The position numbers were made by a program, and so were the translations under genes. A model generated the notes under the pieces. It saw only the letters and a program-made list of their open reading frames with translations, was not told where the DNA came from and made no database searches. Shown here one piece after another: positions 8,320 to 64,000 of a stretch of DNA of 64,000 nucleotides (position 1 is the first letter of the stretch; each line of letters opens with the position of its first letter). The DNA comes from Candidatus Saccharimonadales bacterium (GTDB lineage Bacteria; Patescibacteriota; Saccharimonadia; Saccharimonadales; EFPC-124): the NCBI GenBank assembly GCA_035710125.1, contig DASTDY010000039.1, positions 6,848-70,847 of the forward strand, given 5' to 3'.

Positions 8320-8691
8320 GTGGACAACCAAACGGGCAACGAGCTGCAGCGGACGCTGTTCAAGGCCGTGCTGTCGGAGTCCGACCCATCGCTTTCGTTC
8401 GACGACCTCGAGTCGTTGTGCAACGAGCGAGTCGCCGATTGGCTCGTTGTCAACACACCACAATTAAAGGCAATGGCGGCGGTGGCCGAGGCTGGCCTAC
8501 TGCTCAAGCGCCATAGCCTTGTGCTCATGAGAGTGAGCATATTGCAAGAGCTAGATAAGCTGCTGCCAGCATGGAAGCGGTGGTTCGAAGACTACCCATG
8601 CGTTGGTGATCTAACCAGCAACAGGGGCATTTTGCGAGCGGAGTTTATCGTCCGGCTCCAAAGGCTCGCCACGCTGGCCGAGGGTTTGTGA
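8320..8691 (+). CDS. Hypothetical protein (GC-rich cassette)
   Basis: 123 aa with a GTG start preceded by TAAGGGG. GC-rich, no motif recognised. Confidence 0.5.
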   Translation: MDNQTGNELQRTLFKAVLSESDPSLSFDDLESLCNERVADWLVVNTPQLKAMAAVAEAGLLLKRHSLVLMRVSILQELDKLLPAWKRWFEDYPCVGDLTSNRGILRAEFIVRLQRLATLAEGL

Positions 8692-8748
8692 CGGGGCCCG
8701 GGCAATCGCTCGGGCTCCAACCCTTTTTTATAATTGTAAACATGGAAC

Positions 8749-8784
8749 AGCCCAGACCCCTCAAGAAGGAGCCTGGGCTTTTTG
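8749..8784 (+). terminator. Hairpin plus T-run between the convergent 8320-8691 ORF and the P450 gene
   Basis: AGCCCAG (8749-8755) pairs with CTGGGCT (8773-8779), followed by TTTTT. Confidence 0.4.
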
Positions 8785-8799
8785 GAGAGCGGGTTATGT

Positions 8800-10083
8800 T
8801 CACGTCGCCCCTGAACTCGCCGGTTGCAGGCGCACCAGTGTGTTGAAATGACGGAAAGTCATGGCGTACACCATGCGGTTGTCGTTTGGATGCACTCGTT
8901 CCCAACTTTCGAACTGTTGCAGCATCTGCACCATGACCAGCGCGGTGAACACCCTGGCCATGTCTTCGCCGATGCACTTGCGCGCTCCCATGCCGAACGG
9001 CGCGTCCGACAGGCGGTCTTTACCGTGGAACGGTTCCCTGCGGTGCATCCCCAGAAGCGACACGAAGATATACGCGCCCTTTGGGATCAGCTGGCCGTCC
9101 AACTCAAACCATGGGTCGGCCTCTACGAACCTAAAGTACTGCGAGAACGACGGGTTGTCGTGCAGCACCTCTTGCAGGAACTCCTGGAGCAAAGGGAGAT
9201 GTGCAAGGTCTTCAAGGGTTGGCTGCCGGTTACCGATACGTTGTGCGATTTCGGCGCGTAGTTCGGCAAACCGGTAATCGGCGGCTGCGACCGCAATGCA
9301 GGCTTCCGACAGCCAGATTGCACTGCTGTCGAACCCCGCCATGACCGCGGTAGAAACTTGATTGTGCACTTGCGACCGTGTCAGCTTTTTAGACGCAATC
9401 AGTTTGCCGAGCAGGTCTTGTGGTTCAGAAGTATCGCCCGCAATGTGACGCTCGGCAATCTCTGCGGTGCGGGTGTCGATAATTTGGTACACCGCGCGGT
9501 CGAAGGCGGCTATTGCCCTCGCGTATTTGCGGGCACCAGGCACCCAGGCTGGCAGAAAAATGCGTTGCGCCATGCCCTCGAACACAGGGTTCACCAGGCG
9601 TACCAGCCCGCGCACTTGGCCGCCAGATGCGTGCGAACCAAACAGATGCTTGAGCAGAATCTCTAATCCGAGCTGCTTGAACTGCTCGAACAGATCGACT
9701 GTCTCTGGCCACTCGCGCAGCCGCTGGGCTGTGGTGCGGGTGGTCTCTTGTGCTACGGCTTGCATGGCCGCATGCGCGAACGCGGGGTTCATGAGCGTCC
9801 GCAGGGTTTTCCAGAGCGACCGGTCGGCGGTGGTGAATAGGCCATCTGGGCCTAGTGCCCGCGCGATCAGTCGGTAAATCCATCCACCCTTTGTGAGTTG
9901 GTTGGGTTGGTTGGTGACGGTGCGGACCAGATCTGGCCGCGTGACTACCCAGAACCGGCGGCCAAACGGCCACGGGAACGGAGCAAGGCCACCTGCACGG
10001 TTGCCAAGCCGTGCAATCTTGACCGGAACCTTTGCGAGCACCACTTCAAGCGGGCTACGACGGGGACGTTTGGTGTTGCGCAT
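8800..10083 (-). CDS. Cytochrome P450 (atypical; GC-rich cassette)
   Basis: Heme-thiolate loop FGMGARKCIG and I-helix-like MAGFDSSAIW. ATG at 10083 is preceded by CGAGGAGGGCAC (strong RBS), so I trim the 453-aa track ORF to 427 aa. Clearly more GC-rich than the adjacent MFS gene. Confidence 0.85.
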   Translation of the reverse strand: MRNTKRPRRSPLEVVLAKVPVKIARLGNRAGGLAPFPWPFGRRFWVVTRPDLVRTVTNQPNQLTKGGWIYRLIARALGPDGLFTTADRSLWKTLRTLMNPAFAHAAMQAVAQETTRTTAQRLREWPETVDLFEQFKQLGLEILLKHLFGSHASGGQVRGLVRLVNPVFEGMAQRIFLPAWVPGARKYARAIAAFDRAVYQIIDTRTAEIAERHIAGDTSEPQDLLGKLIASKKLTRSQVHNQVSTAVMAGFDSSAIWLSEACIAVAAADYRFAELRAEIAQRIGNRQPTLEDLAHLPLLQEFLQEVLHDNPSFSQYFRFVEADPWFELDGQLIPKGAYIFVSLLGMHRREPFHGKDRLSDAPFGMGARKCIGEDMARVFTALVMVQMLQQFESWERVHPNDNRMVYAMTFRHFNTLVRLQPASSGAT

Positions 10084-10164
10084 GTGCCCTCCTCGCTCTT
10101 CAGAAGAACGGCTGCGGCAAAAACCGCTGCGTGTCACAATAATACTGCCGATTGCAGCCAAAAA

Positions 10165-11466
10165 CTAGCTAGAAAGATAGTGGTGTGAAAGTTGGCGGTA
10201 ATATTTAGTGGCCATGGCACCAAAGGTTACCACCAATCCAATTAAGCCGGTGATCGTAAAGACTAAGGCAATACCTCTGTCTGCCCCAGTGCCGAACCAA
10301 CCGCCAATTAGTTCTACGCCAGCGCCGGTAGCCATAAAAGGGATAAACACAAATTGCGTAATAGGCCCGATTAAAAATGCGGTAAGAGGTGAAGCCGCTT
10401 GTTCTATACTTTGGGCAAAGCCAAACACCCTACCTTGGCGTTCGCGCGGCACCACCTTTTGAAGGATTGTTTGCTCTGACGCCTCAATAAACGGTGCGAG
10501 GCACAAATATGCGAACATACCAATCATTAGCAGTACAATAGATGACTGTAACGTAAACACCGAACTAACCGCCCAACAGATGATATTCGCCACAAATAAT
10601 GTTCGGAGCGGGTTTTTACCCAGGCCTTTTTTACTAATAATCAGACCGCCCACAATAAATCCAAGACTTAGCACGCCCCAGATTAAACCCCACGCCTCTA
10701 CAGATACCAGCGATAGGCCGTAGGCATCCATGAGCGCCATAAATACTCCGCCCAAAAAATTGTTGAACGTAGTGAATAAAATAAGCGCAAGTAGACCAGG
10801 AACGCTTTTTACTACTAAGAACGTGCCTTTTAGGTCTATCTTTTTATGGTCTTCACCGGTATGAACGATACCCTTTTCTGGGATTGCTATCCACCAGATG
10901 TGGGCTATGGCCGCTGCAGTAACCACCAGGGCTAGAATAAGCACGTACCATAGTCCGGCCAGCCCTACCAAGAATCCGCTAATAACAGAGGTGACTAAGA
11001 ACGATACGCCAGAGGACGCGCCGATCAGTCCGTTAGCTTTGTCTCGCTTTTGCTCAGGGATAAGTATAGTAACGGTGGTAGGGAGCGCAATCATGCGTAT
11101 GTTGCCAGCCATTACTCCAGTCATTAGGCACAACACTAGTGCCCACAAGGTTACACTAGACGGCTCTTTAAACGTGTCGGGCGCTGCGGTAGAGTATATT
11201 GCTAAACTTATGGCGTAAAATACTAAAGATACTACGCTCGACCACATCATGACTGGTTTCTTTTTATAGTGGTCAACAATGCTGCCGAACCAAATGCCAG
11301 ATAGAGCAGTGGCGACTAAATACACGCCCGAAATCATTCCTGTTGCAAACACCGACTGCGTTTCAAGGTATACATAAAAGGTGATTGCAAACCACACTGT
11401 AAAGTTAATAACAGATACCGTTAAGGTATTGGCTAAAATATGGTAGAACGCGGCTAGATGAGTCAT
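10165..11466 (-). CDS. MFS transporter
   Basis: 433 aa, about 12 predicted TM helices, typical MFS layout. Confidence 0.8.
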   Translation of the reverse strand: MTHLAAFYHILANTLTVSVINFTVWFAITFYVYLETQSVFATGMISGVYLVATALSGIWFGSIVDHYKKKPVMMWSSVVSLVFYAISLAIYSTAAPDTFKEPSSVTLWALVLCLMTGVMAGNIRMIALPTTVTILIPEQKRDKANGLIGASSGVSFLVTSVISGFLVGLAGLWYVLILALVVTAAAIAHIWWIAIPEKGIVHTGEDHKKIDLKGTFLVVKSVPGLLALILFTTFNNFLGGVFMALMDAYGLSLVSVEAWGLIWGVLSLGFIVGGLIISKKGLGKNPLRTLFVANIICWAVSSVFTLQSSIVLLMIGMFAYLCLAPFIEASEQTILQKVVPRERQGRVFGFAQSIEQAASPLTAFLIGPITQFVFIPFMATGAGVELIGGWFGTGADRGIALVFTITGLIGLVVTFGAMATKYYRQLSHHYLSS

Positions 11467-11469
11467 GTA

Positions 11470-12320: not shown

Positions 12321-12944
12321 ATGTCGATCAAGAAGGTTACTGCTCTGCTCGCACTGCTCGCCGGCCTCACCGCTTGCAGCAAGGTGAGCGGCATGGCCAC
12401 GCCGGCCTCGTCGTCTGCGGAAGCGCCCATGGTCACCACGACCACCAGCGCTCCGGCCACGTCGTCGTCGGTGCCGACCTCGACACCCAGCTCCACTCCG
12501 TCCACCACGGCGTCGTCGGTGAACCCGATGTACGACCTGGCAGACCCCAAGATCGTGCTGCCGGCTGCGATCATCGCTGAGCACACCCGCAACAACTCGA
12601 TCGGGCTGCTGGAGCCGACGTGCACCACCGAGGCCAAGGAGTACGACGAGCGGTCCTGCACGCACATGGGTCACACCGTGACCGTGGTGGTCACGACCTA
12701 CGTCGACCCCACGGGCGTGAAGTTCAACGATCTGATCCTGGAGGCCAAGAAGACCGGCGACTACATTCCGTTCGTGAACTTCATGGACGGCGCGGCGCAG
12801 GCATTCTTCTCCAAGGGGCAGAACCCCGAGTCGATCACGCTGTTCACCAAGAACGTGGTCGTCAAGATCGAGCTCAAGGGCTTCAAGATCACCATGGCCG
12901 CGCTCCAGGAACTGGCGCGCAACGTGGTGGCCAGACTGGCCTGA
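12321..12944 (+). CDS. Lipoprotein with Ser/Thr/Pro-rich linker (GC-rich cassette)
   Basis: ATG at 12321 is preceded by GAGGGGA. Lipobox LLAGLTAC, then a TTTSAPATSSSVPTSTPSSTPSTT linker. A sampled 60-nt stretch is 73 % GC. The 286-aa antisense ORF is an Arg/Gly-rich shadow. Confidence 0.7.
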   Translation: MSIKKVTALLALLAGLTACSKVSGMATPASSSAEAPMVTTTTSAPATSSSVPTSTPSSTPSTTASSVNPMYDLADPKIVLPAAIIAEHTRNNSIGLLEPTCTTEAKEYDERSCTHMGHTVTVVVTTYVDPTGVKFNDLILEAKKTGDYIPFVNFMDGAAQAFFSKGQNPESITLFTKNVVVKIELKGFKITMAALQELARNVVARLA

Positions 12945-12993: not shown

Positions 12994-13022
12994 GGCCCCT
13001 TCCGCATTCCGCGGTCGGGGCC
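12994..13022 (+). terminator. GC-rich hairpin 3' of the lipoprotein cassette
   Basis: GGCCCC (12994-12999) pairs with GGGGCC (13017-13022), with an inner CCGC/GCGG pairing. Followed by ATTTGCTTTT. Confidence 0.4.
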
Positions 13023-13067
13023 ATTTGCTTTTATAGGGATATTTTTGGCTTGTATGTTGTGCTGTGC

Positions 13068-13101
13068 GGCCGTGTACCCAGGTTCTACTAGGTACACGGC
13101 C
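13068..13101 (-). terminator. Perfect 11-bp hairpin 3' of the 13112-13696 cassette
   Basis: GGCCGTGTACC (13068-13078) pairs with GGTACACGGCC (13091-13101). No U tract. Confidence 0.45.
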
Positions 13102-13111
13102 ATGCAGCGCG

Positions 13112-13696
13112 CTAAGCGCGCACGCGGCTCTGGCGCTGCATTTGCACAGGGCTTGGCAGGATGGCCAACATGTCGGTATGGCCGTGGGATTCAGAAACGT
13201 GGCCGCTGATCGACCCGTACACCTGCAGGCCGATCGCCGCGATGTCGTCGCCAGGACAACAAACGAGCGAGCCCGCCCTTAGCAGCAACGCGGCAATTCT
13301 GTTGATGTTGCTGCGGCGGAGCTTGCCCTGCACGGTCGTCTCAGCTTGAGTTAATAGCCAGCGTAGAGGGCCGTGCCTTTTGCAACAGCGGCCGTGCGCG
13401 TGGGTTTGGATGTACTGCGGGTTTGGTTTGGTGCGTTGGGTTGCAATGTGCCGGGAAAACTCGCAGGCGAACAACGTGTACGTCAACTTCAACTGGCTGC
13501 GAGTTAGGTTGGGTAGCACCGGCCCAAGCCTCTTGCGCGCTTTCCGCGCATACAAAATGCTCTCTGCGTGGTGTGGACTTGTGGCCGGAGCGGGTTGGAA
13601 GTTGGTGCGCTTCACAGTTGTTCGCGCGACATCAAGGAGCAACGTTTCTGCCAGGGCAGCCAACTGAGTCGGCACAGGCCCTTTACGGTTAGACAT
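13112..13696 (-). CDS. Hypothetical basic protein (GC-rich cassette)
   Basis: Internal ATG at 13696 (MSNRKGPVPTQLAAL...) chosen over the upstream start of the track ORF. The frame shows mostly G/C third positions, for example GDDIAAIGLQVYGSISGH. No domain recognised. Confidence 0.45.
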   Translation of the reverse strand: MSNRKGPVPTQLAALAETLLLDVARTTVKRTNFQPAPATSPHHAESILYARKARKRLGPVLPNLTRSQLKLTYTLFACEFSRHIATQRTKPNPQYIQTHAHGRCCKRHGPLRWLLTQAETTVQGKLRRSNINRIAALLLRAGSLVCCPGDDIAAIGLQVYGSISGHVSESHGHTDMLAILPSPVQMQRQSRVRA

Positions 13697-17175: not shown

Positions 17176-17214
17176 CAAAAAACGGCTAGGTTAGTTGCCC
17201 TAGCCGGTTTTTTT
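17176..17214. terminator. Bidirectional intrinsic terminator between folP and the pilin gene
   Basis: CGGCTAGG (17183-17190) pairs with CCTAGCCG (17199-17206). An A-run lies upstream and TTTTTTT (17208-17214) downstream. Confidence 0.75.
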
Positions 17215-18685: not shown

Positions 18686-18713
18686 GCGGGGCAAAGCTCC
18701 CTTCCGGGGGTGG

Positions 18714-19508
18714 TTACAACATGCCGTGCTCGGCAAGCTGGGCAACGACTGTTCTGTGGTAGTACTGCACGTCGTGGGTCACGCCTTCCAGGATGATGGC
18801 GTTTTCCATGTTGCGCGGGCGCTTGCGCAGTTCGGGGAACAGCTCGTCGCGCTCGGCGTACGCCGTGCGGACAGGCACCTTCTGGCGTGCGAGTTCGTCG
18901 GTCAGCGCGAGGTACACGTCGGTGCGGGTCAGCATCCAGCCTTCTGCGAGTGTCCGCGGCAGGTTTGATGCGTATTCGCGCAAACCAGGTCCGCGCAGGG
19001 CCATCACTGCCCGCACGTCTGTGTTGGGGTGGAACCTGGCCATGCGGAGGTCGTTGACCGCCTTGAACAGCACGCGTCCCACCAGCCGCAGACCCTCCTT
19101 GCGGAAACACGCCGGTGCGAGTGGGAACAGACTGCGTGGCACGTTAGGCAGGTACGCAGCTGCAGCGAGCATGCTTGCCGCAGCTCCGAACGAGTGGCCG
19201 TAAATGCGTACGTTGTACCCCTGCAACGACTGCCCCTCGACATCCTTTGGCGATGGGCGGGCGGCGCGGAAGGTCTGCACAGCCTTGCTGATCTCAGACG
19301 CGACGTGCCTCGCCTGCAGGTCCAGCGCCAACGGGAACGGTGAGGTGCGGCGGAGTGTTATGCAGTCGCCTCGCCGCAGCGACCCGATGTAGAACGTGGG
19401 GTTGCCGCTGACGTGCTCCATCAATTTGCAAAGCGGCTGGTGCGTGGCCTCGCCAGCACCGAAACCGCCAACTACAAAGTCAAGCGTGTTACCAGACAAC
19501 TGGTCCAC
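18714..19508 (-). CDS. Alpha/beta hydrolase (GC-rich cassette)
   Basis: 264 aa with a GTG start. Nucleophile elbow GHSFGAA. GC-rich with Arg-rich antisense shadows. Confidence 0.7.
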   Translation of the reverse strand: MDQLSGNTLDFVVGGFGAGEATHQPLCKLMEHVSGNPTFYIGSLRRGDCITLRRTSPFPLALDLQARHVASEISKAVQTFRAARPSPKDVEGQSLQGYNVRIYGHSFGAAASMLAAAAYLPNVPRSLFPLAPACFRKEGLRLVGRVLFKAVNDLRMARFHPNTDVRAVMALRGPGLREYASNLPRTLAEGWMLTRTDVYLALTDELARQKVPVRTAYAERDELFPELRKRPRNMENAIILEGVTHDVQYYHRTVVAQLAEHGML

Positions 19509-20248: not shown

Positions 20249-21031
20249 CTACTCAATGAACGTGACGCCCTCTGCGGCCCAGTAGGCACGCATGGCCGAA
20301 GGCAGGTACGCCACACGTTCAGAAGGCAGGGGCGATTTCGAAACCGGCCCGAGTTTGCATTTTTCACAGTGCATGTCAGACAATGCTAGCCCACAGTGCG
20401 CACACAGGGAAAAGACGATTTTGTAGTCGCCGGCCATCTCTTCCCGTTCGATGGGTGCAATGCTGCACCGCTTGAACGTATCTTCGAGCAGTTTTGGTCG
20501 TTTCACGGGTGGGGTGCTGTAAAGTTCCCTGCTGGTTGTCGTGAACCATGCCACTCCTGCGTGAACCGTTGTGATCGTGTTGTTGTATGCATGAGGCCTT
20601 GAGGGGTCAGATAGAACCACCCACGGCGAGATGCCTGATGTATCTGCGCTCAAGAATACTGGCCAGTTTCGCATGCCGAAACCGGTTGCGGTGTTCTTGT
20701 GTACCACGCGTGGACTTCTTTGGTCCACCTCGCGGACGTAGCTGTTCCGAAAATCTTTTGCACTGTAAGCAGTGGGGGCGCGGCGGGCCTGTACACGGAG
20801 CAGTCCCTCTTGGTCCTTAGATAGCGCCCAGTATGCGCCACGAATGTATAGCCCTGGCAGGGCCAACTGGCAGGTTTGGCCTGGGAACTCTTGGTCTTCG
20901 ATCGTTAGTACATCTTTGGCGGTTGCGAGACTCAGGTGTGGCGTCAGGCGATCAAGCAGGTGGTTGGTCATCTGCTGTGGCCGGGAGTACACAGACAACA
21001 GTGTCTGCTCGTACACATCCCTGCTAGGCAT
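20249..21031 (-). CDS. Hypothetical protein with C-terminal CxxC...CxxC zinc ribbon (GC-rich cassette)
   Basis: ATG at 21031 after AAGGAGCACCTA. C-terminal LCAHCGLALSDMHCEKCK. Confidence 0.55.
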   Translation of the reverse strand: MPSRDVYEQTLLSVYSRPQQMTNHLLDRLTPHLSLATAKDVLTIEDQEFPGQTCQLALPGLYIRGAYWALSKDQEGLLRVQARRAPTAYSAKDFRNSYVREVDQRSPRVVHKNTATGFGMRNWPVFLSADTSGISPWVVLSDPSRPHAYNNTITTVHAGVAWFTTTSRELYSTPPVKRPKLLEDTFKRCSIAPIEREEMAGDYKIVFSLCAHCGLALSDMHCEKCKLGPVSKSPLPSERVAYLPSAMRAYWAAEGVTFIE

Positions 21032-23052: not shown

Positions 23053-23388
23053 GTGGAACAGTCCAATAGATATGACCATGAAGAGCGCTATAAAGACAGC
23101 GCGGACGTACTCGCCCACGAGGCAGAGATTGCCGAGATCGATGCCCAAATTATGCGCCTATGGCAGCGCCGCAACGAGCTTGCCCGCCTTGTGGCAGCTA
23201 TCCGCCGCAAGTCAGGCAGGCCGGCCAACCCTTATAGCGAAGAGCTTAGTGACCGCAGTCGGTTTGTGCATCGCGCCCAGGAGCTGGGGGTGTCCCGTGC
23301 CTTAGGTGGTGAGGTGATAGACCTGCTCACAAAAGCGGCCCATAAACCTTTGCCGCCCACTAATCCAGAGACTCAGGCCGGCCAGTAA
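23053..23388 (+). CDS. Small chorismate mutase (AroQ)-like helical protein, possibly degenerate (GC-rich)
   Basis: 111 aa with a GTG start. AEIAEIDAQIMRLWQRRNELARLVAAIRRKSG resembles the AroQ N-terminal helices, but the first catalytic Arg position reads Glu. By-eye alignment only. Confidence 0.3.
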   Translation: MEQSNRYDHEERYKDSADVLAHEAEIAEIDAQIMRLWQRRNELARLVAAIRRKSGRPANPYSEELSDRSRFVHRAQELGVSRALGGEVIDLLTKAAHKPLPPTNPETQAGQ

Positions 23389-34249: not shown

Positions 34250-34963
34250 TTACGAGCTTGGCTGCTTGCAAGCTCCTGGAAGGCTCGCATCGGCCGGGCG
34301 TGAACAGACCCAGCTCGATTGGCCGGCGCTACGCGGTACTTCAGCGTCCCACGACTCGCCACCCTTGACGCAGATCACCTTGGCCGTGTAGGGCACTGCC
34401 GTGCTGAACAGTGAAAACACGTAGGTGTTGGCCGCATCTGCCGACTTCTCTGCCGAGCCCGCCTGGTTCACCTCTGGCTGCACGAACACTTGGTCTACCT
34501 GCGCGCCGTCGTCGCAGACGGCGACGATCTTGAGCTTCTTGTCGCCCTGCTTGCAGGAGCCACGGTCACCGGTGACGGCCGGGGGTTCGCACACAAGGTC
34601 TGCGTTGTCACCCCAGGCCTTAGCCTCCGAGCGGTTGGTCGTCAGCCAGTTGGAAGATTCGGTAGAGTCCGAATCTTTGTCTTTCGCGCCACAGCCAACG
34701 TTCACTTCGAACGATGTCTGCGGTGACGGCAGCTCAACAGCAAAGAAGCCGGCGTTCTTGACCTGTGCTTCACGGGGCTGTGTGCGCCGCGCCTCCTTGT
34801 CGGCGTCTCCGGCCTTGACTTGCGCTCCGACCACATCCGACCCATCAGCACACAGCACGCTGAAATTCAGCGTTTCGCCGGGGTGTGGCTGCTGTTCGGG
34901 GGAGGCTGTGCCGGAGCATGCTGCAACCAACAGCACGGCTGCCGCTGCAATGCCAATCTTCAA
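34250..34963 (-). CDS. Cys-rich lipoprotein with internal tandem duplication (GC-rich cassette)
   Basis: 237 aa with a TTG start 6 nt after AAGGAG. Lipobox LLVAAC. Two repeat units are visible by eye: LNFSVLCADG...LVCEPPAVTGDRGSCKQ and LKIVAVCDDG...WVCSRPADASLPGACKQ. Confidence 0.7.
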   Translation of the reverse strand: MKIGIAAAAVLLVAACSGTASPEQQPHPGETLNFSVLCADGSDVVGAQVKAGDADKEARRTQPREAQVKNAGFFAVELPSPQTSFEVNVGCGAKDKDSDSTESSNWLTTNRSEAKAWGDNADLVCEPPAVTGDRGSCKQGDKKLKIVAVCDDGAQVDQVFVQPEVNQAGSAEKSADAANTYVFSLFSTAVPYTAKVICVKGGESWDAEVPRSAGQSSWVCSRPADASLPGACKQPSS

Positions 34964-37538: not shown

Positions 37539-38150
37539 CTAGCCGACCTCGGTTTCAGCGGAAAGCTTGCGGTCCAGCCAGCTCACAAAGACCTCCCAAG
37601 GTGCCGACTGCCACACCTCTGGACCGATGTGTGCCCTTGCCAGCTTGGCCGTCAGGCCGGTGGGCTCAGGCGAAACCAACCTCTCCAGGTGAACCAGTCC
37701 CTCCTGAAGCGCCCCATGCAGCTCATGGGTGAGTGGCTGCTCGGTTTCCGTCAGTTGGCGCGTTGCGCGCAGGACGCGCAGCAGAAGAATCGCCCCGGTA
37801 CCGTCAACGGGCATCTCGATACCTGCCTGGTCGCAAAGCTTGTTCAGCAGGTCCTGGGCTTCAACGATCGCCCGCTGGAACGCCCAGCTCCGGAGGTTGT
37901 GGAGATGGGTCTGCCGGCGCTTGGCCTCGTAGACAGCCGGCAAAGGGATGGTGGCGGCCATGTGGTCGACTACCTGCACGACCATGTCGTAGTACTTCAT
38001 CGAGAACCGCGGCCGCAGTGGGAGTGAGGGGCCCTCATAGGAGAGCATGAGCTCCACAGCCCCATGCAACATAGTGTCGTCGGGCATCTCTTGGCACCCA
38101 TCGAGCACCTCGTACGGCCACTGGTCCAAAAACAGTCCGTCCAAAACCAA
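37539..38150 (-). CDS. Hypothetical protein (GC-rich cassette)
   Basis: 203 aa with a TTG start after AGAAGG. No motif recognised. Wedged between dnaB and the GT-C gene. Confidence 0.5.
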   Translation of the reverse strand: MVLDGLFLDQWPYEVLDGCQEMPDDTMLHGAVELMLSYEGPSLPLRPRFSMKYYDMVVQVVDHMAATIPLPAVYEAKRRQTHLHNLRSWAFQRAIVEAQDLLNKLCDQAGIEMPVDGTGAILLLRVLRATRQLTETEQPLTHELHGALQEGLVHLERLVSPEPTGLTAKLARAHIGPEVWQSAPWEVFVSWLDRKLSAETEVG

Positions 38151-41190: not shown

Positions 41191-41523
41191 TTAGAAGCAG
41201 CAGTGCGATACTTCCCAACTGATCGAGGGAAGGAACGCACCGAGGTCCTTGATGTGCTCTCTGTACGCACTAGACAGCGTTGCGAGCAGAGCGTTTTGCT
41301 CTTTTTCGCCACCATCTGGGTCAAGAATGAAGTCACGCAAGGGCACGCGCTGCAAACGATTCATGAGCCGAACATGGAACACCTCCTTGTCTTGTGGCTC
41401 AAAACCTGGCACAAACTCGCACCGCGCCTCTATCCAGTTGTGCTGTCCTGTCGCGCATTTAAGCACCTCTACATGGAAATCTGCAAAGGACACCTCAAGC
41501 CGTGGCCTGAAGCATTCCTTCAT
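41191..41523 (-). CDS. Hypothetical protein, second ORF of a GC-rich pair (or 3' part of a frameshifted gene)
   Basis: ATG at 41523 (MKECFRPRLEVSF...). The track ORF extends to a GTG at 41613 and overlaps the upstream ORF by 85 nt in another frame. Confidence 0.4.
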   Translation of the reverse strand: MKECFRPRLEVSFADFHVEVLKCATGQHNWIEARCEFVPGFEPQDKEVFHVRLMNRLQRVPLRDFILDPDGGEKEQNALLATLSSAYREHIKDLGAFLPSISWEVSHCCF

Positions 41524-41528
41524 ACGCC

Positions 41529-41744
41529 TTACGACTGTGGGCAGGTCTGAGTGATGGTCAAAAGAATGTACGCCGCCCAAGAACCGTCGGGCGCCAAGAC
41601 GGGTGGTTGCCACCCCACCTTAAGCCCACGCATCGCAGTAGGGAATTGTGCGAATGCTTCCTCACTTCCCTCATCAAAAACAACAGCAAAACCAAGCCGG
41701 TCATCAGACAATTGGACGTGACTAGCCTGCGGAAAGGTCTCCAC
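41529..41744 (-). CDS. Hypothetical protein, first ORF of a GC-rich pair (or 5' part of a frameshifted gene)
   Basis: 71 aa with a GTG start 5 nt after GAAGGAG. Confidence 0.4.
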   Translation of the reverse strand: METFPQASHVQLSDDRLGFAVVFDEGSEEAFAQFPTAMRGLKVGWQPPVLAPDGSWAAYILLTITQTCPQS

Positions 41745-45412: not shown

Positions 45413-45658
45413 ATGGGCAATGGTCGAGCAAAAGTGTGTGTTTACGGACGGGCACGAAAGTTGTTAAGGGACATAGAAGCCCTTAACAACATGAAGCTCG
45501 ACGTCCACACTATGTCGCGACGTGAATGGGGCCGTAACATGGCCGAGCTCGTTCGCAAAGTTGCAGATTCTGGCCTAAGCCCGATTGCCGTGCGCCAGTG
45601 GCTCCCACCTTGGCTTGCCGAGGCGGTTGAGCGCGAACGCGTTCGGTCTGCGGCCTAG
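45413..45658 (+). CDS. Small hypothetical protein, possible HTH (GC-rich cassette)
   Basis: Trimmed to the ATG at 45413, 5 nt after GGAGG (MGNGRAKVCVYGRARKLL...). The upstream part of the track ORF contains the terminator. SGLSPIAVRQWL resembles a recognition helix. Confidence 0.45.
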   Translation: MGNGRAKVCVYGRARKLLRDIEALNNMKLDVHTMSRREWGRNMAELVRKVADSGLSPIAVRQWLPPWLAEAVERERVRSAA

Positions 45659-52567: not shown

Positions 52568-52574
52568 AAATAGG

Positions 52575-53000: not shown

Positions 53001-53015
53001 AATTATTGCTCCTTT

Positions 53016-53047
53016 GTGGTACCAACGGCTTTTTAAAAGCCTCCCAC
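53016..53047 (-). promoter_or_regulatory. Putative L1-binding leader structure upstream of rplK
   Basis: RNA reads GUGGGAGGCUUUUAAAAAGCCGUUGGUACCAC, 15 nt upstream of the rplK AUG. Same architecture as the element at 52534-52567. Confidence 0.45.
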
Positions 53048-53127
53048 GTTTAGTTGATAGGAGTGCGTAACAGATAGATTATATAAGATAATGACTAAAA
53101 ATACCAGCCCTTTTACAAAATGGGCCA

Positions 53128-53174: not shown

Positions 53175-53717
53175 TCAGCCGCGGACCCTCACGACCGGCG
53201 CCGGTCTGGCGGGCAGCTTCCTGCCGCCGTTGTTGATGACCTGCCGCTTGTAGGTAGCGCCCCAGCTGGCCAGCTGGCTGGCGGACTCCAGCATGTTCGC
53301 CTTGATCTGAAGGAGCGCTGCCAAGGCCTCGCTGGCAACCGTGGGCTCAACGCTCATGCCGGCGTACCAAGCCAGTGTCTCGTGGATCGGCTTGGTGCGC
53401 GCGTCGATGGCGAACTTCATCCGCTGCCCGGCTGAGGCGTCGGCGTACTCGATGGACGCCTTCGGCACGCCCTTCAGCTGGGCGGAGATGCCATTGGCGT
53501 GGGCGATCAGCAGCCCGAAGTCGGTCTTGCCGTCGATGACGGGCAAGCCCCTGAGCTGCTGCGCCGCGGGCCTGGTTGTCCTGGTCAGCGTGTGTGACGC
53601 TTCGCTGTCCAGGTACCGCGGCCAGACCTCGCGCACCAGCGTGTCGAGACCGCTGATCGCGTCCAACACATCTTGCGCGATGGGCGTTTCGGTCAATGAA
53701 CCAGTTTCCGTGGTCAT
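53175..53717 (-). CDS. Hypothetical protein (GC-rich cassette)
   Basis: 180 aa. ATG after GAAAGG. No motif recognised. Confidence 0.55.
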   Translation of the reverse strand: MTTETGSLTETPIAQDVLDAISGLDTLVREVWPRYLDSEASHTLTRTTRPAAQQLRGLPVIDGKTDFGLLIAHANGISAQLKGVPKASIEYADASAGQRMKFAIDARTKPIHETLAWYAGMSVEPTVASEALAALLQIKANMLESASQLASWGATYKRQVINNGGRKLPARPAPVVRVRG

Positions 53718-53871: not shown

Positions 53872-55053
53872 CTACTCGTCACACAAGCGGCGCGCTTGCC
53901 GCACTACCTTGTGTGCCTCGTCTTCAGTGCAACGCGCCAAGCCGCACGTCGGCCCGAACCCATCAAAGTTGTAGCCAATGATGTGTTCGATCAACCTGCG
54001 CACTTGTTGGACTTCCTGGAACGACTGACCGACCCTGCAGATCCCTGCAATGTACTCCACACCATGCCAGAGAACCAGCCACCGCAAGCCAAAATATGCA
54101 CTCGATTTTTGGCTGAGCGGCGCAGAGCCTGCAGCGATGTTGAGCAACACCTCCTTGAGTCTCGTACCGGCTACCCGCTGCAACGGGTTCACAAACGTGG
54201 CAATGGCCTTGGTTGATTGGATTTTTGCAGCCAGCTTCATTGCCCTGGCGCACCACTTTGCCTTCATACGTGGCGCTCGCCGGCCGAACACGAGATCGAC
54301 CAGCCACAGCAGCAACCCTTCAATCATGCTGGCGCTTTGGTAGTCGCCCCAGCACGGGTGAAGGCTCAGGTGGATATTGGGCGGCAACTCAGCCAAAACC
54401 TTCTGGAGGATGCCAGCCGAGTAGTGGGCGAACTTGTGGCCCAACCCCACCAGTCGGGCAAGAGCAGTCACGATCTGCCCAAACGGTGACTCGTACGACA
54501 AAATGATGTCGTTCGGGTCAACGAATTCCAAGATCTCCTTGACTTCGTTCACCCATGCCTGCACGAATCCGTCCAGGCCAACTACGTAGTTGTTAACCAG
54601 CGCGCCCCAGTCAAAAGGCGACGCCATGCCCACACGCAGCCGCAGGTGGGCGCCCTCTTCGCCAAGCTCGCGGCGAAACCCAAGGAACACCTCGTAGGCA
54701 ATGCGCGTGAGCCGCACATAGCCCAGCGGACCGATGTCTTTGGCGGTGATGTGCGCCGCAGACCGCAGGCGGCGCAGCATGTCTGCGTAGCCCTCTACCA
54801 CCAGGGGTTGCATGCCGAGCGACGTGCGTACGGTGTAGAGCGCCTGCATGCGAATCCAGTCGCGCCACATAGCAGGGTCGCCAGCCGACAGGTAGTTAAC
54901 CCGCCCACCTGTTGCGTGCCACTGCGCTCGCATGTTCTGGTGGATCATCTCGCGCAGCTGGTCGTCTGTGAGCGCCAACAGCTCGAGGTCGGGCAGATCG
55001 TTGACCTCATTGGGCCAACTACCTGGCCAACTAAACACCTTGCACTTTGCCAT
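53872..55053 (-). CDS. MetE-like / UROD-fold TIM-barrel protein (cobalamin-independent methyltransferase-like; GC-rich cassette)
   Basis: Start at the ATG at 55053 (MAKCKVFSWPG...). HLSLHPCWGDY and GFGPTCGLARCTEDEA resemble the His/Cys zinc ligands and the C-terminal PDCGL motif of the MetE family. By-eye comparison only. Confidence 0.45.
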   Translation of the reverse strand: MAKCKVFSWPGSWPNEVNDLPDLELLALTDDQLREMIHQNMRAQWHATGGRVNYLSAGDPAMWRDWIRMQALYTVRTSLGMQPLVVEGYADMLRRLRSAAHITAKDIGPLGYVRLTRIAYEVFLGFRRELGEEGAHLRLRVGMASPFDWGALVNNYVVGLDGFVQAWVNEVKEILEFVDPNDIILSYESPFGQIVTALARLVGLGHKFAHYSAGILQKVLAELPPNIHLSLHPCWGDYQSASMIEGLLLWLVDLVFGRRAPRMKAKWCARAMKLAAKIQSTKAIATFVNPLQRVAGTRLKEVLLNIAAGSAPLSQKSSAYFGLRWLVLWHGVEYIAGICRVGQSFQEVQQVRRLIEHIIGYNFDGFGPTCGLARCTEDEAHKVVRQARRLCDE

Positions 55054-55078: not shown

Positions 55079-55114
55079 AAATAGATGCACCCCATGGTCG
55101 GGGTGCATCTATTT
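55079..55114 (-). terminator. Perfect 15-bp hairpin just downstream of nusG
   Basis: AAATAGATGCACCCC (55079-55093) pairs with GGGGTGCATCTATTT (55100-55114). Confidence 0.5.
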
Positions 55115-60732: not shown

Positions 60733-60778
60733 GGTTCGGCCCCAAGTCCGAAAGACAAGAGGCTCAAGGGGCCGAACC
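60733..60778 (-). terminator. Perfect 11-bp hairpin 3' of the 60784-61401 cassette
   Basis: GGTTCGGCCCC (60733-60743) pairs with GGGGCCGAACC (60768-60778), 24-nt loop. Confidence 0.45.
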
Positions 60779-60783: not shown

Positions 60784-61401
60784 TCAACGCAGCCAGAACG
60801 CCACTACCACAAACGCTACCGACACAATAAGGGCCGGCACAATGATCCTGTGCATTGTCTTGTAACGCTCAATGGGCTGGATCATGCGGTCGGCGCGCAT
60901 CAGATCCAACGCGAACATGTCGAAATCTGACTCAATGACGGAGGCCCAATCCGCTGCTTTATGGAAGCTCTTGCCTGCTCCCTTAAAAGGCGGCGCATAG
61001 GTTATGAGCGACAGGCCAATACTCAGCCCAGTCATACCCACGCCAATTTTGGCCACCGTTGCCGAAGCCAAGTTGGCGCTCACTAGCAGGCCGTACGCAG
61101 CAAGGGTTGCGACTGCAACCGTAATGAACACCACGGTGCGCTGGGTCAGATCCCGCAAGCTGCCTGCGCGGTATTCGAATTCACCTTTGGCGTACTTGAG
61201 TGCGATTTCCTTGTTGGGGTGTTTGTTCCAGCGGCGCTTGTACTTTTTACGTTGGGTAGGCCACCATTCTTCTAGGGGTTTTGAGGGCTGTGGCTTAAAG
61301 AACCTTACAACGGCTTCCTGCCACTTCTTGCGCTTCTCCTTGAAGGACTCCTGTGGTTTTTGGGGCTTTGGCTTAAAAAAACGAGCAATAGCTCGCAACA
61401 T
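60784..61401 (-). CDS. Hypothetical membrane protein (basic N-terminus, TM hairpin, C-terminal TM; GC-rich cassette)
   Basis: ATG at 61401 after GGAG (MLRAIARFFKPKPQKPQ...). TM helices at VVFITVAVATLAAYGLLV, IGVGMTGLSIGLSLI and IIVPALIVSVAFVVVAF. Confidence 0.5.
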   Translation of the reverse strand: MLRAIARFFKPKPQKPQESFKEKRKKWQEAVVRFFKPQPSKPLEEWWPTQRKKYKRRWNKHPNKEIALKYAKGEFEYRAGSLRDLTQRTVVFITVAVATLAAYGLLVSANLASATVAKIGVGMTGLSIGLSLITYAPPFKGAGKSFHKAADWASVIESDFDMFALDLMRADRMIQPIERYKTMHRIIVPALIVSVAFVVVAFWLR

Positions 61402-61509: not shown

Positions 61510-62073
61510 ATGGCTCTGCCCGAATGGTGTAACAAGGAATACCTACAGCGATTCGTAGGCGGCTTCTTGTGGGTGATCAACCAAACCGACAACTACACGT
61601 ACTGCGGAGAAATCGCCGGTCTGGACATACGCGACGGCCACCTAGAGGTAACTCCTACATGGTGGGCAGTGGGTGTAGACGGCCATAACCGCCGGTCAAT
61701 GAGGCACAACGGGGGCTGGGTGCGCTCAGCCTTTAAAGAACATACGGTTGCCCTGTACGCACCTGCAAACCCCGACAAACCCAATGACTACGACATGCCT
61801 TTGTATGTCGCAATGCCAGGTATCACCGACGGCAGGCTCATTCTGGATGGCGGCAAAATCCAAGACGAAATGCTCGCCTTCTACCCGCCAGGTAAGTCGC
61901 TGATGCAAGAAAACCAAGTGCGGCCTGCCAACCCGGCAAATCCGGTAGATGAAAGCCGAAAACCACTTGGCGACAGGGTTGTGGTTGAGATGTACCAAGT
62001 TGACCCAGATGGCAAACAGCGTCTGATGCACAGGATCGAGCCGCCCTCAGATGCGGATAACGACGCTCCGTAA
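61510..62073 (+). CDS. Hypothetical protein (GC-rich cassette)
   Basis: 187 aa. ATG 6 nt after AAGGAG. No motif recognised. Confidence 0.55.
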   Translation: MALPEWCNKEYLQRFVGGFLWVINQTDNYTYCGEIAGLDIRDGHLEVTPTWWAVGVDGHNRRSMRHNGGWVRSAFKEHTVALYAPANPDKPNDYDMPLYVAMPGITDGRLILDGGKIQDEMLAFYPPGKSLMQENQVRPANPANPVDESRKPLGDRVVVEMYQVDPDGKQRLMHRIEPPSDADNDAP

Positions 62074-62099: not shown

Positions 62100-62155
62100 T
62101 AGCAGATGAGAGCATACTAAGGACGCAAGACCCCAATGTGTGCCTCATCTGCTAC
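62100..62155 (+). terminator. 11-bp stem with a large loop 3' of the 61510-62073 cassette
   Basis: TAGCAGATGAG (62100-62110) pairs with CTCATCTGCTA (62145-62155). Confidence 0.35.
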
Positions 62156-62265: not shown

Positions 62266-62664
62266 ATGCCCGCTCGCGATATCAGCCAGCTGCCAAGAGA
62301 CGCTGGCGACTTCACCAGCGAAGGCCTCACCCGAGCACTGCAAGTGTCGCTCCGGAAGCGGCAATTGCTGAAGGCCGGGTTGGCTGAGCAGCCACGTGAA
62401 GTCATTCAGCATGTCCTGAGCCTCACGCCGGCCCAGACCGACCAGCTCAGCAAGCTGTCTGAAGAAGAAGTGAAGGAGCTGGCCGCTCCCGTGCTGGAAG
62501 CGCTGGAGAGGTCCGACGCCTCACGGTTCAAGGTGAAGCTGGTGCCGCTCCCTGCTGCGACCGAAGCACGCACCCAGCAGCAGGGCGGACAGCAGCCACC
62601 ACAGCCACCTCAGCCGCCCAGGCGTAGGTGCCGGGTGAAGATCGAGGTAGAGATCGAGGCGTAA
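62266..62664 (+). CDS. Hypothetical protein with a Gln/Pro-rich tract and charged C-terminal tail (GC-rich cassette)
   Basis: 132 aa. ATG after GGGAGA. Ends in QQQGGQQPPQPPQPPRRRCRVKIEVEIEA. Confidence 0.5.
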   Translation: MPARDISQLPRDAGDFTSEGLTRALQVSLRKRQLLKAGLAEQPREVIQHVLSLTPAQTDQLSKLSEEEVKELAAPVLEALERSDASRFKVKLVPLPAATEARTQQQGGQQPPQPPQPPRRRCRVKIEVEIEA

Positions 62665-62669
62665 CCCCG

Positions 62670-62704
62670 TGCCACCCGCAGGCAGCAATGCTCTGCGGGT
62701 GGCA
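62670..62704 (+). terminator. Perfect 12-bp hairpin 3' of the 62266-62664 cassette
   Basis: TGCCACCCGCAG (62670-62681) pairs with CTGCGGGTGGCA (62693-62704). No U tract. Confidence 0.5.
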
Positions 62705-62718
62705 TCCCTTTAAACGTA

Positions 62719-63303
62719 CTATCTGGCCGTGTTTTTTTTGTGTACGTAAAAAGAGATCCAGATAGTCCAGAGCTGTAGCATAAGCCAAGACCCTGCCTCG
62801 AAGGCAAAGATTAAATGGCTTTCTTTGGGAGATAGCAAAAACAACATTGTCAAAGCAAAGCTAAGCAATATTGCCGCATATGTTACTGTTTGCACCTGCC
62901 TGTCTTGGGATTTTTTTGCAAGCACAAACATACCCACTAAAAATAACAAACCACTCGATAATGCCACACTAACGTGCGCAACCACGCTTGCAGTGTCGTC
63001 GGGATTGTACGGCAGCAGGCCAGTAGCCGCAAATAAGGTAAGCGAGACTGCAAAAATTTTAAGCGGCACAGTAAAATACTTCGCCAAATGGTGTTTTGTG
63101 AAGATCCAAAAGCAGATAGCCGCCAATGTGTAACACGCACTAAATGCCCAACGTGTTTCAGGCAGTGTTGCAAAAAAACTAATCGGATATTTCCAACCAA
63201 AATAAAGCGGCATCTGTAAATAATAAATGAGTAACGCCGACCACTCCACAGCCACAGTCGCAAGGCCTGCATACTTTGCAAAAGATTCAACATTGCGGTT
63301 CAC
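62719..63303 (-). CDS. DUF998-like polytopic membrane protein
   Basis: 194 aa, about 6 TM helices. Backbone-like composition. Confidence 0.55.
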   Translation of the reverse strand: MNRNVESFAKYAGLATVAVEWSALLIYYLQMPLYFGWKYPISFFATLPETRWAFSACYTLAAICFWIFTKHHLAKYFTVPLKIFAVSLTLFAATGLLPYNPDDTASVVAHVSVALSSGLLFLVGMFVLAKKSQDRQVQTVTYAAILLSFALTMLFLLSPKESHLIFAFEAGSWLMLQLWTIWISFYVHKKNTAR

Positions 63304-63333
63304 CCTACAAGCATAACAGACATACTAATTGAA

Positions 63334-63365
63334 ATACCCGAAGGCTGCAGGGAGCCTTCGGGTAT
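63334..63365 (-). terminator. Perfect 13-bp hairpin 3' of the 63381-63995 cassette
   Basis: ATACCCGAAGGCT (63334-63346) pairs with AGCCTTCGGGTAT (63353-63365). Confidence 0.5.
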
Positions 63366-63380
63366 AGGGTGCCGAGTAGC

Positions 63381-63995
63381 TTACTCGGCGTCGGGTCCAC
63401 AGACCAGCTGGAACTCGACCGTGCAGTGCGCGGTGAATGTAGCGCGTAGCGTTGACAGCTCGTGCACTGTGCCGACGGGCACAGAGTTCGCGGGCTGCCA
63501 CTTGCCGTCTGCATTCAAGCTGATCTCGACTGACTCGCCAGGCTTGTGCGTCCTGACGCGCACCATGTCGGTCAGGTACACCCACTGATCGTCGAGGCGA
63601 CGGGTAGCAACCGGCCCCCACCTCACTGGCTGAACCGGCGGCTCGTAGGTGCCGCGTTGCACACGGAGCGTTCCGGCCACGATATCCATCCGCAGGTCTG
63701 GCGCGATCTTGACCCACTGGTCCGTGACGGCCACCGTGTACGTGGCCCCGCGGGGGTTAGTGACCCGTATGTCCCGGCGGGAGATCCCGTTTTCGCCGCG
63801 ATGCGGGATCACTTCTAGCTCGTAGCCACGGAGGGTGTGCCTGCCGCGGCAAGGCAGAAGTGCTATCTCGCCCCAATGAGGCTCCACCAACAAGACCGGC
63901 TGCCGCCCTGTCTTTTGGCGTACGGCAACCATGCTGCCGCTCACCTCGCGCTCCCAGAACCGTACTTCCAGATCGGCTCCGGGCACAGCGGACAC
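63381..63995 (-). CDS. Hypothetical beta-rich protein (GC-rich cassette); 5' end may lie beyond the window
   Basis: 204 aa from a GTG at 63995. The frame stays open to the window edge, so the true start is unknown. Confidence 0.5.
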   Translation of the reverse strand: MSAVPGADLEVRFWEREVSGSMVAVRQKTGRQPVLLVEPHWGEIALLPCRGRHTLRGYELEVIPHRGENGISRRDIRVTNPRGATYTVAVTDQWVKIAPDLRMDIVAGTLRVQRGTYEPPVQPVRWGPVATRRLDDQWVYLTDMVRVRTHKPGESVEISLNADGKWQPANSVPVGTVHELSTLRATFTAHCTVEFQLVCGPDAE

Positions 63996-64000
63996 CCATT

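Follow-up and report, generated by a model that had tools for sequence, protein, structure and literature searches.

A 64,000-nucleotide (nt) stretch of DNA from a Candidatus Saccharimonadales bacterium (assembly GCA_035710125.1, contig DASTDY010000039.1, positions 6,848 to 70,847 of the forward strand), referred to here as the window, carries 18 GC-rich open reading frames (ORFs) that lie between housekeeping genes. These ORFs, here called cassettes and named by their first coordinate in the window, are in our assessment (probability about 0.6) horizontally acquired single-gene inserts in slots between operons, spread by transformation and homologous recombination and derived ultimately from a high-GC source. 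Their composition, the structure of the slots, presence or absence in relatives, the replacement of alleles, purifying selection and the lack of mobility genes were observed directly; the donor phylum and the transformation and recombination route we infer.

Results

The 18 ORFs, with boundaries as in a preliminary description of the window, have a mean GC content at third codon positions (GC3) of 0.719 (range 0.585-0.904), against 0.501 (standard deviation 0.042, maximum 0.602) for 49 backbone ORFs, in a window of overall GC 0.508. They are also higher in GC1, GC2, R/(R+K) and Gly+Ala+Arg+Pro content, and Arg/Gly/Pro-rich shadow ORFs are present antisense to them. Their summed length is 11,067 nt (17.3% of the window). 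Fourteen of them stand out clearly (z >= 3: 8320, 8800, 12321, 13112, 18714, 20249, 27208, 34250, 37539, 53175, 53872, 60784, 62266 and 63381) and four are marginal (z 2.0-2.9: 23053, 41191, 45413 and 61510), the coding frame being uncertain for 41191 and 45413. Both the GC-rich class and its antisense shadow ORFs, proposed in the preliminary description, are thereby confirmed.

The list had been picked by GC content, so that a GC test on the same list is circular; an independent criterion was therefore used, namely absence from two collinear relatives, L004 (collinear with window 21-39.6 kb) and L086 (window 46-60.7 kb). Here L-numbers denote loci or contigs of relatives or of homologue carriers, and P-numbers denote homologous proteins. 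Over the two blocks, GC3 exceeded 0.6 in six of the eight window genes missing from the relative and in none of the 25 shared genes (Fisher p = 2.5e-5). The two exceptions, 24863-27148 and 29040-29942, have backbone composition; hence variable genes are not always GC-rich. The former (plus strand, GC3 0.50) encodes a 761-residue DMFA2_C protein resembling the N,N-dimethylformamidase beta subunit and occurs in no collinear relative. A test of conservation against GC3 over all loci is confounded by uneven coverage, and the collinear-block test was used in its place.

Across the order, unique ORFs were not GC-richer than core ORFs (61 Saccharimonadales loci), and an ORF at least 0.15 above the median GC3 of its locus was found in only 29 of 138 loci. 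The GC-rich class is thus specific to some lineages, the clade of the window, L002, L070 and L095 standing out. Slot variability itself is general in Saccharimonadales, the inserted genes of most lineages not being GC-rich.

The cassettes occur singly or in pairs over 56 kb, each in the gap that separates a core unit's terminator from the promoter of the following unit. The flank pairs typA/g23360, recR/DHH, dnaB/PMT_2, nusG/rplK and g19617/g17934 are conserved (L001-L004, L081-L083, L086 and L168). At the sites of 23053, 27208, 34250 and 37539, L004 has its core genes side by side, with 33 nt from recR to the DHH gene; L001, L002 and L003 carry other, non-homologous high-GC3 ORFs in the equivalent junctions. 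The slot downstream of typA measures 373 nt in the window, 1709 in L001, 670 in L002, 545 in L003 and about 0 in L004, and its contents are non-homologous across these five equidistant genomes. Likewise, both nusG/rplK cassettes are missing from L086, in which GC-rich ORFs occupy other slots, ones left empty in the window. The accessory nature ascribed earlier to the GC-rich ORFs is borne out by these collinear relatives (L001-L004 and L086), in which they are missing or replaced. The earlier picture of foreign genes is modified in that the regions upstream of the cassettes are AT-rich and native in style, with TATAAT-like boxes and GGAGG or AAGGAG ribosome-binding sites (RBS), and the GC-rich stretch extends from near the start codon to a hairpin beyond the ORF.

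The slot between nusG and rplK has conserved edges. On its left, the nusG intrinsic terminator is conserved in L081 and L083, and a classical nusG terminator was found in every relative compared. On its right, the element GTTACGCACTCCTA stands just downstream of TATAAT before rplK (window 53010-53090, minus strand; L091 1917-1942; L092 4950-4975). The element recurs in several Saccharimonadales, matched no Rfam family and may be a leader or operator of the L11/L1 operon. Among about 60 metagenomic loci of Saccharimonadales, the gap itself measures between 18 nt and 5.6 kb; in L092 it amounts to 39 nt in all. At L095, a locus of 48% GC, the gap holds an unrelated antisense ORF of 473 residues (10613-12034, minus strand; GC3 0.895; weak Big_1 Ig-like match), an independent case of a GC-rich slot insert in a more distant Saccharimonadales lineage. 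The distance from rplK to rplA also varies by kilobases within the order (L106, L114 and L145 among others; about 4.3 kb in L106 and L145, for example), so that slots are present even within the L11-L1 operon.

Replacement of alleles was observed in the 53872 family, which occupies the same slot in L081, L082 and L083. Between L081 and L083, secE-nusG is 93% identical at the nucleotide level (synonymous divergence, dS, 0.21-0.53; nonsynonymous divergence, dN, 0.003-0.009), whereas the adjoining cassette shows 48% amino-acid identity (dS 1.6, dN 0.49). The break in identity falls right at the end of the nusG terminator, the cassette beginning some 25 nt beyond, and the window allele is equally far from both (46-51%). 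In the hydrolase slot (18714), the cassette is 47% identical in amino acids to that of L168 and 30-34% to that of L002, with flanks 81-91% and 60-87% identical, respectively. Because the divergence exceeds that of the flanks in both cases, a cassette may be deeper in history than its surroundings, which is, on these alignments, the pattern that recombination in conserved flanks would produce. Cassette and flanks were of equal dS in two other comparisons (L166 and L169).

Nine of the ten cassette proteins checked are annotated coding sequences (CDS) with the same boundaries (PGAP, locus tags VFO38_019xx-0216x). The cytochrome P450 8800 is 95% identical to its counterpart in the same slot of L166 (P0019; dS 0.33, dN/dS 0.09). 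For 8320 the L166 comparison gave 72% amino-acid identity (dS 0.51, dN/dS 0.30), and 34250 is 91% identical in amino acids to its L169 counterpart (dS 0.49, dN/dS 0.08). These relatives are about 90% identical to the window in nucleotides, and backbone genes in the same L166 and L169 comparisons had dS of 0.3-0.7 and dN/dS of 0.02-0.12. Judged by these ratios, the three genes are under purifying selection. In this soil member of the Saccharimonadales, the GC-rich ORFs are real, lineage-restricted accessory genes. A recent gain is contradicted, the P450, 8320 and 34250 being present in relatives at dS 0.3-0.5 and 18714 and 53872 being shared as divergent alleles.

All 16 cassette 3' ends that were folded gave a stable stem-loop (z = -2.7 to -6.4 against dinucleotide shuffles), about 11-12 of them without a U run adjoining the stem; in 37539, 12321 and 53175 a T run lies a few nucleotides off. 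Perfect stems of at least 10 bp follow eight of the 18 cassettes and five of 47 backbone genes, three of these five being hairpins shared with a convergent cassette. Backbone terminators have an A-tract, a stem and a T-tract, as at 17177-17212, 19572-19605 and 55079-55114. The preliminary description had given most cassettes a perfect hairpin without a U tract and the backbone classical terminators. The stable stems and the frequent lack of a U run were upheld, but perfect stems of that length occur at only 8/18 and the hairpin of 8320 is classical. Backbone terminators are indeed classical, but one of the cited examples (44804-44844) falls within the Rfam L10 leader that precedes rplJ-rplL (44797-44933, minus strand). 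As had also been claimed, the hairpin goes with the cassette: in L004, the GC-rich hairpin is absent along with the cassettes and the downstream promoter region can still be aligned. Between L169 and the window, the 16-bp stem of the 34250 hairpin is identical and the loop changed, and the hairpin at the hydrolase 18714 is conserved in L168. The cassette hairpins are predicted to act as terminators.

The GC3 of the cassettes does not decay with divergence. For typA, dS between the window and L002 is 2.4, i.e. saturated; the positionally orthologous hydrolase has a GC3 of 0.78 in the window and 0.75 in both L168 and L002, and three MetE-like alleles of the 53872 family (dS at least 1.6) have 0.74, 0.73 and 0.71. 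Under a two-state amelioration model with an equilibrium of 0.5, no more than 9-20% of the starting excess would remain, which corresponds to a GC3 of at most 0.54-0.59. One ancient gain with neutral decay ever since is therefore at odds with these values, and the simple picture of foreign relics is not supported, the amelioration that it predicts not having taken place. Either a GC-rich source keeps re-supplying the alleles, or this class of genes is held at high GC by some force.

Homologues outside Saccharimonadales were detected for only two cassettes, the P450 and 53872, at 34-42% identity on contigs of 65-70% GC. A HMMER search of 1.84 billion representatives gave six full-length clusters for 53872, two of them Saccharimonadales alleles. 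P0003 and P0004 lie on contigs of 65% and 69% GC; on the former (L084) one neighbour gene matches Amycolatopsis and Streptomyces best, and for the latter (L172) composition is the sole evidence, its GC being 69% and the GC3 of a neighbouring ROK-family gene 0.89. P0006 lies on a contig of 56% GC with mosaic GC3 (L173/L174), on which ABC/FtsX genes have a GC3 of about 0.50 and three ORFs, including the MetE-like homologue, 0.69-0.80; the homologue adjoins a nitroreductase-YcaO pair. This contig, of uncertain affiliation, may represent a second organism with the mosaic pattern. For the P450, a word-indexed search of 5.8 billion proteins returned three homologues: the L166 ortholog, P0020 (42% identity, on the 70% GC contig L167 with a response regulator 76% identical to that of Nonomuraea) and P0021 (38%). 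The hydrolase 18714 search found only itself and L168.

No tblastn match was found for 17 cassettes in 72,556 plasmids, actinobacterial plasmids and linear replicons among them, or in 50,697 phages, nor any relative in IMG/VR viral contigs for the three cassettes scanned (37539, 63381 and one more). A plasmid, phage or moron reservoir was accordingly dropped. Seven orphan cassettes, as a concatenated query against the 5.8 billion proteins, gave no match among the 8000 candidates admitted, a weak negative because low-complexity words had probably taken up those places. Relative synonymous codon usage (RSCU) of the cassettes correlates with that of actinobacterial contigs (r = 0.87) and of high-GC Saccharimonadales core genes (0.85), and is not discriminating. 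A high-GC, probably actinobacterial, ultimate source is plausible for the two families with outside homologues, and the transfers are old or their donors unsampled. The actinobacterial donor suggested in the preliminary description thus holds in part: the outside homologues of two families are on actinobacterial or high-GC contigs, but they are distant and the remaining cassettes are orphans. Recent arrival from a sampled host is not supported by homologues at this distance, by the 26-29% identity of the P450 to plasmid-borne Streptomyces P450s or by the missing plasmid and phage matches.

Pfam scans of the ORFs in the 64 kb revealed no integrase or transposase, and the window contains no tRNA. 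Around the cassettes, no direct repeats or target-site duplications longer than expected by chance were present, no k-mer of at least 8 nt was shared by more than three of the 18 junctions, and the hairpin sequences are unrelated. The earlier observation that integrase, transposase, attC-like core and target-site duplication are all missing is thus confirmed within the window. A genomic island, insertion sequence or transposon was rejected for want of an integrase, transposase, tRNA target or flanking repeats.

The individual cassettes, their hairpins and the edges of the nusG/rplK slot are listed in Table 1.

Table 1. Cassettes of the window with their 3' hairpins, and edges of the nusG/rplK slot (window coordinates).
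Feature	Position	Strand	Composition and remarks	3' hairpin
Orphan ORF, 123 aa	8320..8691	+	GC3 0.726; annotated CDS HET9411578.1	8693-8718; T run follows, classical terminator; z = -3.7
Cytochrome P450	8800..10083	-	GC3 0.689; Pfam p450 E = 3.5e-35	8749-8779; 3' of ORF
Predicted lipoprotein (LLAGLTAC lipobox, Ser/Thr/Pro linker)	12321..12944	+	GC3 0.904; annotated CDS; no family match	12994-13022; z = -3.75
Orphan	13112..13696	-	GC3 0.708; sole long open frame in region; annotated CDS	13067-13102; no U tract; z = -6.1
Alpha/beta hydrolase	18714..19508	-	GC3 0.781; Pfam Abhydrolase_6	18667-18710; shared with convergent backbone gene 17934-18656
Orphan, C-terminal Cys-rich motif	20249..21031	-	GC3 0.628	20192-20238; no U tract; z = -5.3
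Marginal cassette, chorismate-mutase-like, downstream of typA	23053..23388	+	GC3 0.616, z 2.8	
Orphan, N-terminal transmembrane helix	27208..27579	-	GC3 0.806; not in L004	27155-27182; shared with convergent gene 24863-27148; z = -5.0
Cys-rich predicted lipoprotein between recR and DHH gene	34250..34963	-	GC3 0.714	34201-34239; 16-bp perfect stem, no U tract
Orphan between dnaB and PMT_2 glycosyltransferase	37539..38150	-	GC3 0.779; not in L004	37494-37537; 3' of ORF
Marginal candidate, strand and frame ambiguous	41191..41613	-	GC3 0.60, z 2.4; no family match	
Marginal candidate	45413..45658	+	GC3 0.585, z 2.0	45735-45757
Orphan, second of two nusG/rplK cassettes	53175..53717	-	GC3 0.878; not in L086	53128-53167; z = -6.3
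MetE/UroD-like TIM barrel, directly after nusG terminator	53872..55053	-	GC3 0.741	53821-53858; 3' of ORF
Membrane protein, orphan	60784..61401	-	GC3 0.641, z 3.4	60733-60778; z = -3.5
Marginal cassette, orphan	61510..62073	+	GC3 0.622, z 2.9	62100-62154; z = -4.9
Orphan	62266..62664	+	GC3 0.737	62669-62705; shared with convergent DUF998 gene; z = -6.4
Orphan, may extend past window end	63381..63995	-	GC3 0.776; R/(R+K) 0.84	63334-63365; z = -4.4
rplK promoter/leader (TATAAT, then GTTACGCACTCCTA)	53001..53095	-	Conserved right edge of nusG/rplK slot	
nusG intrinsic terminator, 15-bp stem between A/T runs	55079..55114	-	Left edge of nusG/rplK slot	

Judged by eye, the cassettes include two lipoproteins and two or three membrane proteins; for the remaining orphans, scans with Pfam, NCBIfam and PADLOC gave no match. 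Among the strong outliers, 13112 has the least certain coding status. The chorismate-mutase likeness of 23053 is a weak match (CM_2, E = 9e-6, under the Pfam cutoff), and ORFs of about 140 residues occupy both strands of the 41191 region. A single-sequence structure model of 37539 had a pLDDT of 44 and was unusable. In relatives, the 20249 slot of L003 holds an ORF of 23% identity at the equivalent site, the longer ORF 45275-45658 has a weak match (41% over 44 residues) to a GC-rich ORF in the equivalent slot of L086, and 53175 has a partial homologue (42% over 66 residues) at the equivalent position of L081. No homologue of 60784 was found among 165 Saccharimonadales loci.

The 53872 family, which is very small (seven clusters among the 1.84 billion representatives) and matches no Pfam or NCBIfam model, gave an AlphaFold model of a TIM barrel (pLDDT 90) whose best match in the PDB is MetE (1xpg, E = 2.5e-6, TM-score 0.55), the closest folds being those of cobalamin-independent methionine synthase and uroporphyrinogen decarboxylase. 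Three residues, His232, Cys234 and Cys370, never vary in the family alignment, which, together with the model, suggests a zinc site.

The backbone comprises typA, a DEAD-box helicase gene, cysS, a DHH gene, recR, ybaB, dnaB, dnaX, thyA and a dihydrofolate reductase (DHFR) gene, together with rplJL and its L10 leader, rplKA, nusG, secE, and genes for a histidine kinase, a pilin and many glycosyltransferases. In GTDB genomes, all relatives of its typA are from Saccharimonadales metagenome-assembled genomes (MAGs), the top match having 88-89% amino-acid identity, and so the Saccharibacteria-type backbone, put as a condition in the preliminary description, is correct. The distance from rplJL to rplK-rplA is about 6.7 kb (window 43769-53000). 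As genes for a glycosyltransferase, thyA, a HIT-dCMP deaminase fusion, a cytidylyltransferase, an APH-family kinase and DHFR separate the two, a block for nucleotide metabolism interrupts what is normally a single rplKAJL cluster. A KwaB-like protein (Kiwa defence; 15383-16378, plus strand; Pfam PF16162, E = 5e-12) is of backbone composition and has a 74% identical copy in one relative, L026. Glycosyltransferases (GT1/GT2/GT4 and 'GT4-conflict' Pfam matches) are numerous at 1-6285, 45962-47122 and 56116-57618, and the same regions hold PMT_2/DUF2206 membrane proteins; all are of backbone composition. Their abundance suggests, by family assignment, extensive envelope glycosylation.

Discussion

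In the reading that we favour, a typical unit would consist of a native-style AT-rich promoter, a GGAGG-type RBS, one GC-rich ORF and a long GC-rich stem-loop that would end or stabilise the transcript and shield the downstream core gene. Such units would have entered by horizontal transfer, with high-GC bacteria as the ultimate source and Actinomycetota as the best candidates. No dedicated mobility enzyme would be involved; DNA would be taken up via the ComEC/type IV pilus competence system, would undergo a one-time illegitimate integration, and would then spread, be swapped or be lost among related Saccharimonadales via homologous recombination in the conserved core flanks. The preliminary description left the insertion mechanism open, and natural transformation with recombination in conserved flanks would seem to explain it best. 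ComEC-dependent natural transformation has been shown in another Saccharibacterium, a cassette having recombined into an intergenic site via flanking homology (PMC10633639). Moreover, individually transferred genes are reported in Patescibacteria in excerpts of a survey, in which most single-gene transfers are inter-Patescibacteria (PMC12455944).

Several points weigh against this reading. The observed GC3 of 0.71-0.78 across saturated divergence lies above the model maximum of 0.54-0.59, and no compared pair displays an insertion breakpoint at nucleotide resolution. The identity of the donor rests on two families at 34-42% identity, and for most cassettes, which are orphans, plasmids, phages, Pfam, NCBIfam and PADLOC yielded no homologue. 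Furthermore, the C-versus-G preference within GC-ending codons (Val, Arg and Ser) is nearer to that of Saccharimonadales than to that of two actinobacterial contigs, which weakly favours long residence. Finally, the window contains no competence genes; only a pilin (N_methyl) is present.

The undecayed GC3 brings up a rather improbable alternative, in which the cassettes are native, fast-evolving Saccharimonadales genes whose GC-richness is made and kept in place, possibly by GC-biased gene conversion (gBGC) at often-recombining slots or by selection on codons or mRNA. It would account for hydrolase and MetE-like alleles (GC3 0.75-0.78 and 0.71-0.74) staying above the neutral expectation, for the more widely shared cassettes having no lower GC3, for the Saccharimonadales-like codon preference and native-style promoters, and for the lack of an actinobacterial homologue for most cassettes. 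However, what the collinear relatives show is absence of the genes and not simply divergence, and both families with outside homologues point to actinobacterial contigs. In addition, gBGC effects reported in bacteria amount to a few percent of GC3, far under the +0.25 seen here, and the order-wide comparison, with unique ORFs no GC-richer in 61 loci and an outlier ORF in only 29 of 138, implies that any such force is not general in the order. We regard it as possible, if on balance doubtful, that the cassette class holds a compositional equilibrium of its own, with GC3 near 0.75 in a 0.50 genome, through saturated divergence. If true, a gene-class-specific force would operate in a naturally competent epibiont belonging to the Candidate Phyla Radiation (CPR): either very strong gBGC at slots where transformation drives recombination, or repeated gene conversion that incoming high-GC (host) DNA imposes on the resident cassettes. 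In the latter event the cassettes would amount to an ongoing record of contact with the host.

Donors among other Patescibacteria, whether Saccharimonadales lineages of high GC or the unsampled phages or mobile elements of these, would call for the same flank-mediated recombination between lineages of differing GC. We consider this source quite unlikely, since no cassette homologue was seen in the high-GC Saccharimonadales loci covering the same slots, none was found in IMG/VR (three cassettes) or in the 50,697 phage genomes, and the flanks of high- and mid-GC lineages, only about 75% identical in nucleotides, are a poor substrate for homologous recombination. In its favour are the core GC3 of the Saccharimonadales loci compared, which extends from 0.35 to 0.78, the RSCU correlation of 0.85, close to the actinobacterial 0.87, the predominance of transfers between Patescibacteria in the excerpted survey (PMC12455944), and P0006 on a 56% GC mosaic contig that may be patescibacterial. 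An integron-like or single-stranded-DNA-transposon-like system, with the hairpins as attC-like sites and the recombinase encoded elsewhere, is very unlikely. Single promoter-proximal ORFs each followed by an inverted repeat, and a hairpin that is absent where the cassette is absent, would match such a system, but the hairpins all differ and have no common core, their stems are near-perfect and not bulged and imperfect as in attC, the cassettes are scattered rather than arrayed, and integrase, transposase and target-site duplication are all missing from the 64 kb. Several of the hairpins are used by a convergent core gene as well, and in L169 the stem is kept and the loop free to change, as for an RNA structure. 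Scarcely credible, lastly, is an artefact of assembly or binning in which GC-rich fragments of co-assembled Actinobacteria had been joined into a TM7 contig. The window does come from a MAG, and its soil of origin abounds in high-GC organisms, but the inserts start and stop at gene boundaries with native promoter and RBS, and junctions of backbone and cassette recur in independent assemblies from other samples and pipelines. Those of the P450 and 8320 recur in L166, that of 34250 in L169-L171 (L166 and L169-L171 all being Logan assemblies, of SRR7186533, SRR7186494 and SRR7186536), those of the 53872 family in L081 (ENA), L082 (Logan) and L083 (JGI), and those of the 18714 family in L168 (Logan) and L002, which refutes the artefact for these five cassettes.

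Under our preferred reading of single-gene inserts in inter-operon slots, gene content would turn over gene by gene at many gaps between operons instead of in a few large islands, and without mobile-element machinery; one of the gaps lies inside the otherwise near-universal nusG-rplK arrangement. Such turnover fits a genome in which natural transformation is the main route of exchange. The inserts include enzyme-like proteins (P450, hydrolase and MetE-like barrel) and envelope proteins, candidates for host interaction or detoxification in uncultured soil TM7. If the GC-rich signal does track actinobacterial donors, it could help to predict hosts; this is not yet feasible because close donor homologues are lacking. 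For models of how base composition evolves, the non-ameliorating GC3 poses an anomaly that is concrete and can be tested.

Among known systems, integron cassettes likewise consist of a single ORF followed by an inverted repeat and include many orphans; the present units differ from them in having no intI, attI, array, conserved R/L core or bulged attC fold, and in their unrelated hairpins. Phage morons (Hendrix and colleagues) are autonomous units of promoter, gene and stem-loop terminator with deviant composition. The resemblance lies in a single-gene unit inserted between two conserved syntenic genes; here, however, the units sit on a cellular chromosome with no phage genes nearby, and they had no match in the 50,697 phages or IMG/VR. 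I-shaped intrinsic terminators, which lack a U tract, have been described for high-GC Actinobacteria such as Mycobacterium. The predicted cassette hairpins resemble them in the long GC-rich stem directly after the stop codon with no U run, and differ in that some have T runs (8320, 37539 and 12321) and several are shared with native convergent genes.

Horizontal transfer reported for Saccharibacteria and Patescibacteria likewise concerns, in the excerpts available to us, single genes or small islands in reduced-genome epibionts bearing competence genes (PMC12455944, PMC8764695 and PMC7427843). In a limited literature check, the same excerpts held no description of the slot architecture, the GC-rich orphan class, the hairpins or the non-amelioration, nor was a description of GC-rich cassettes found in excerpts of the paper on 'T. 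rhizospherense' (L018; PMC6031116), a relative with a complete genome.

The slots share most with minimal mobile elements (MMEs), defined in a quotation given in PMC3787668, and with the hot spots of horizontal transfer that core genes flank in naturally transformable bacteria. The likeness lies in a variable, often single-gene region of deviant composition between specific conserved flanks, with different or no genes at the same site in close relatives and neither mobility genes nor repeats. MMEs were reportedly described in Neisseria by Saunders and Snyder in 2002 and by Snyder and co-workers in 2007. They move by transformation and homologous recombination in the flanks, as the cassettes would, the exchange here being deduced from one pair, L081/L083. 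The present case differs in its CPR epibiont host, in inserts that are GC-richer and not AT-richer than the genome, in their unusual density (they fill about 17% of the sequence and occur at about one junction in three or four), in the long GC-rich stem-loop that ends each insert and in a GC3 that persists across saturated divergence. The slots would thus exemplify a familiar kind of event, the gain of genes at hot spots of recombination, in a CPR epibiont, and the one odd property is a GC-richness that has stayed undecayed over long evolutionary time.

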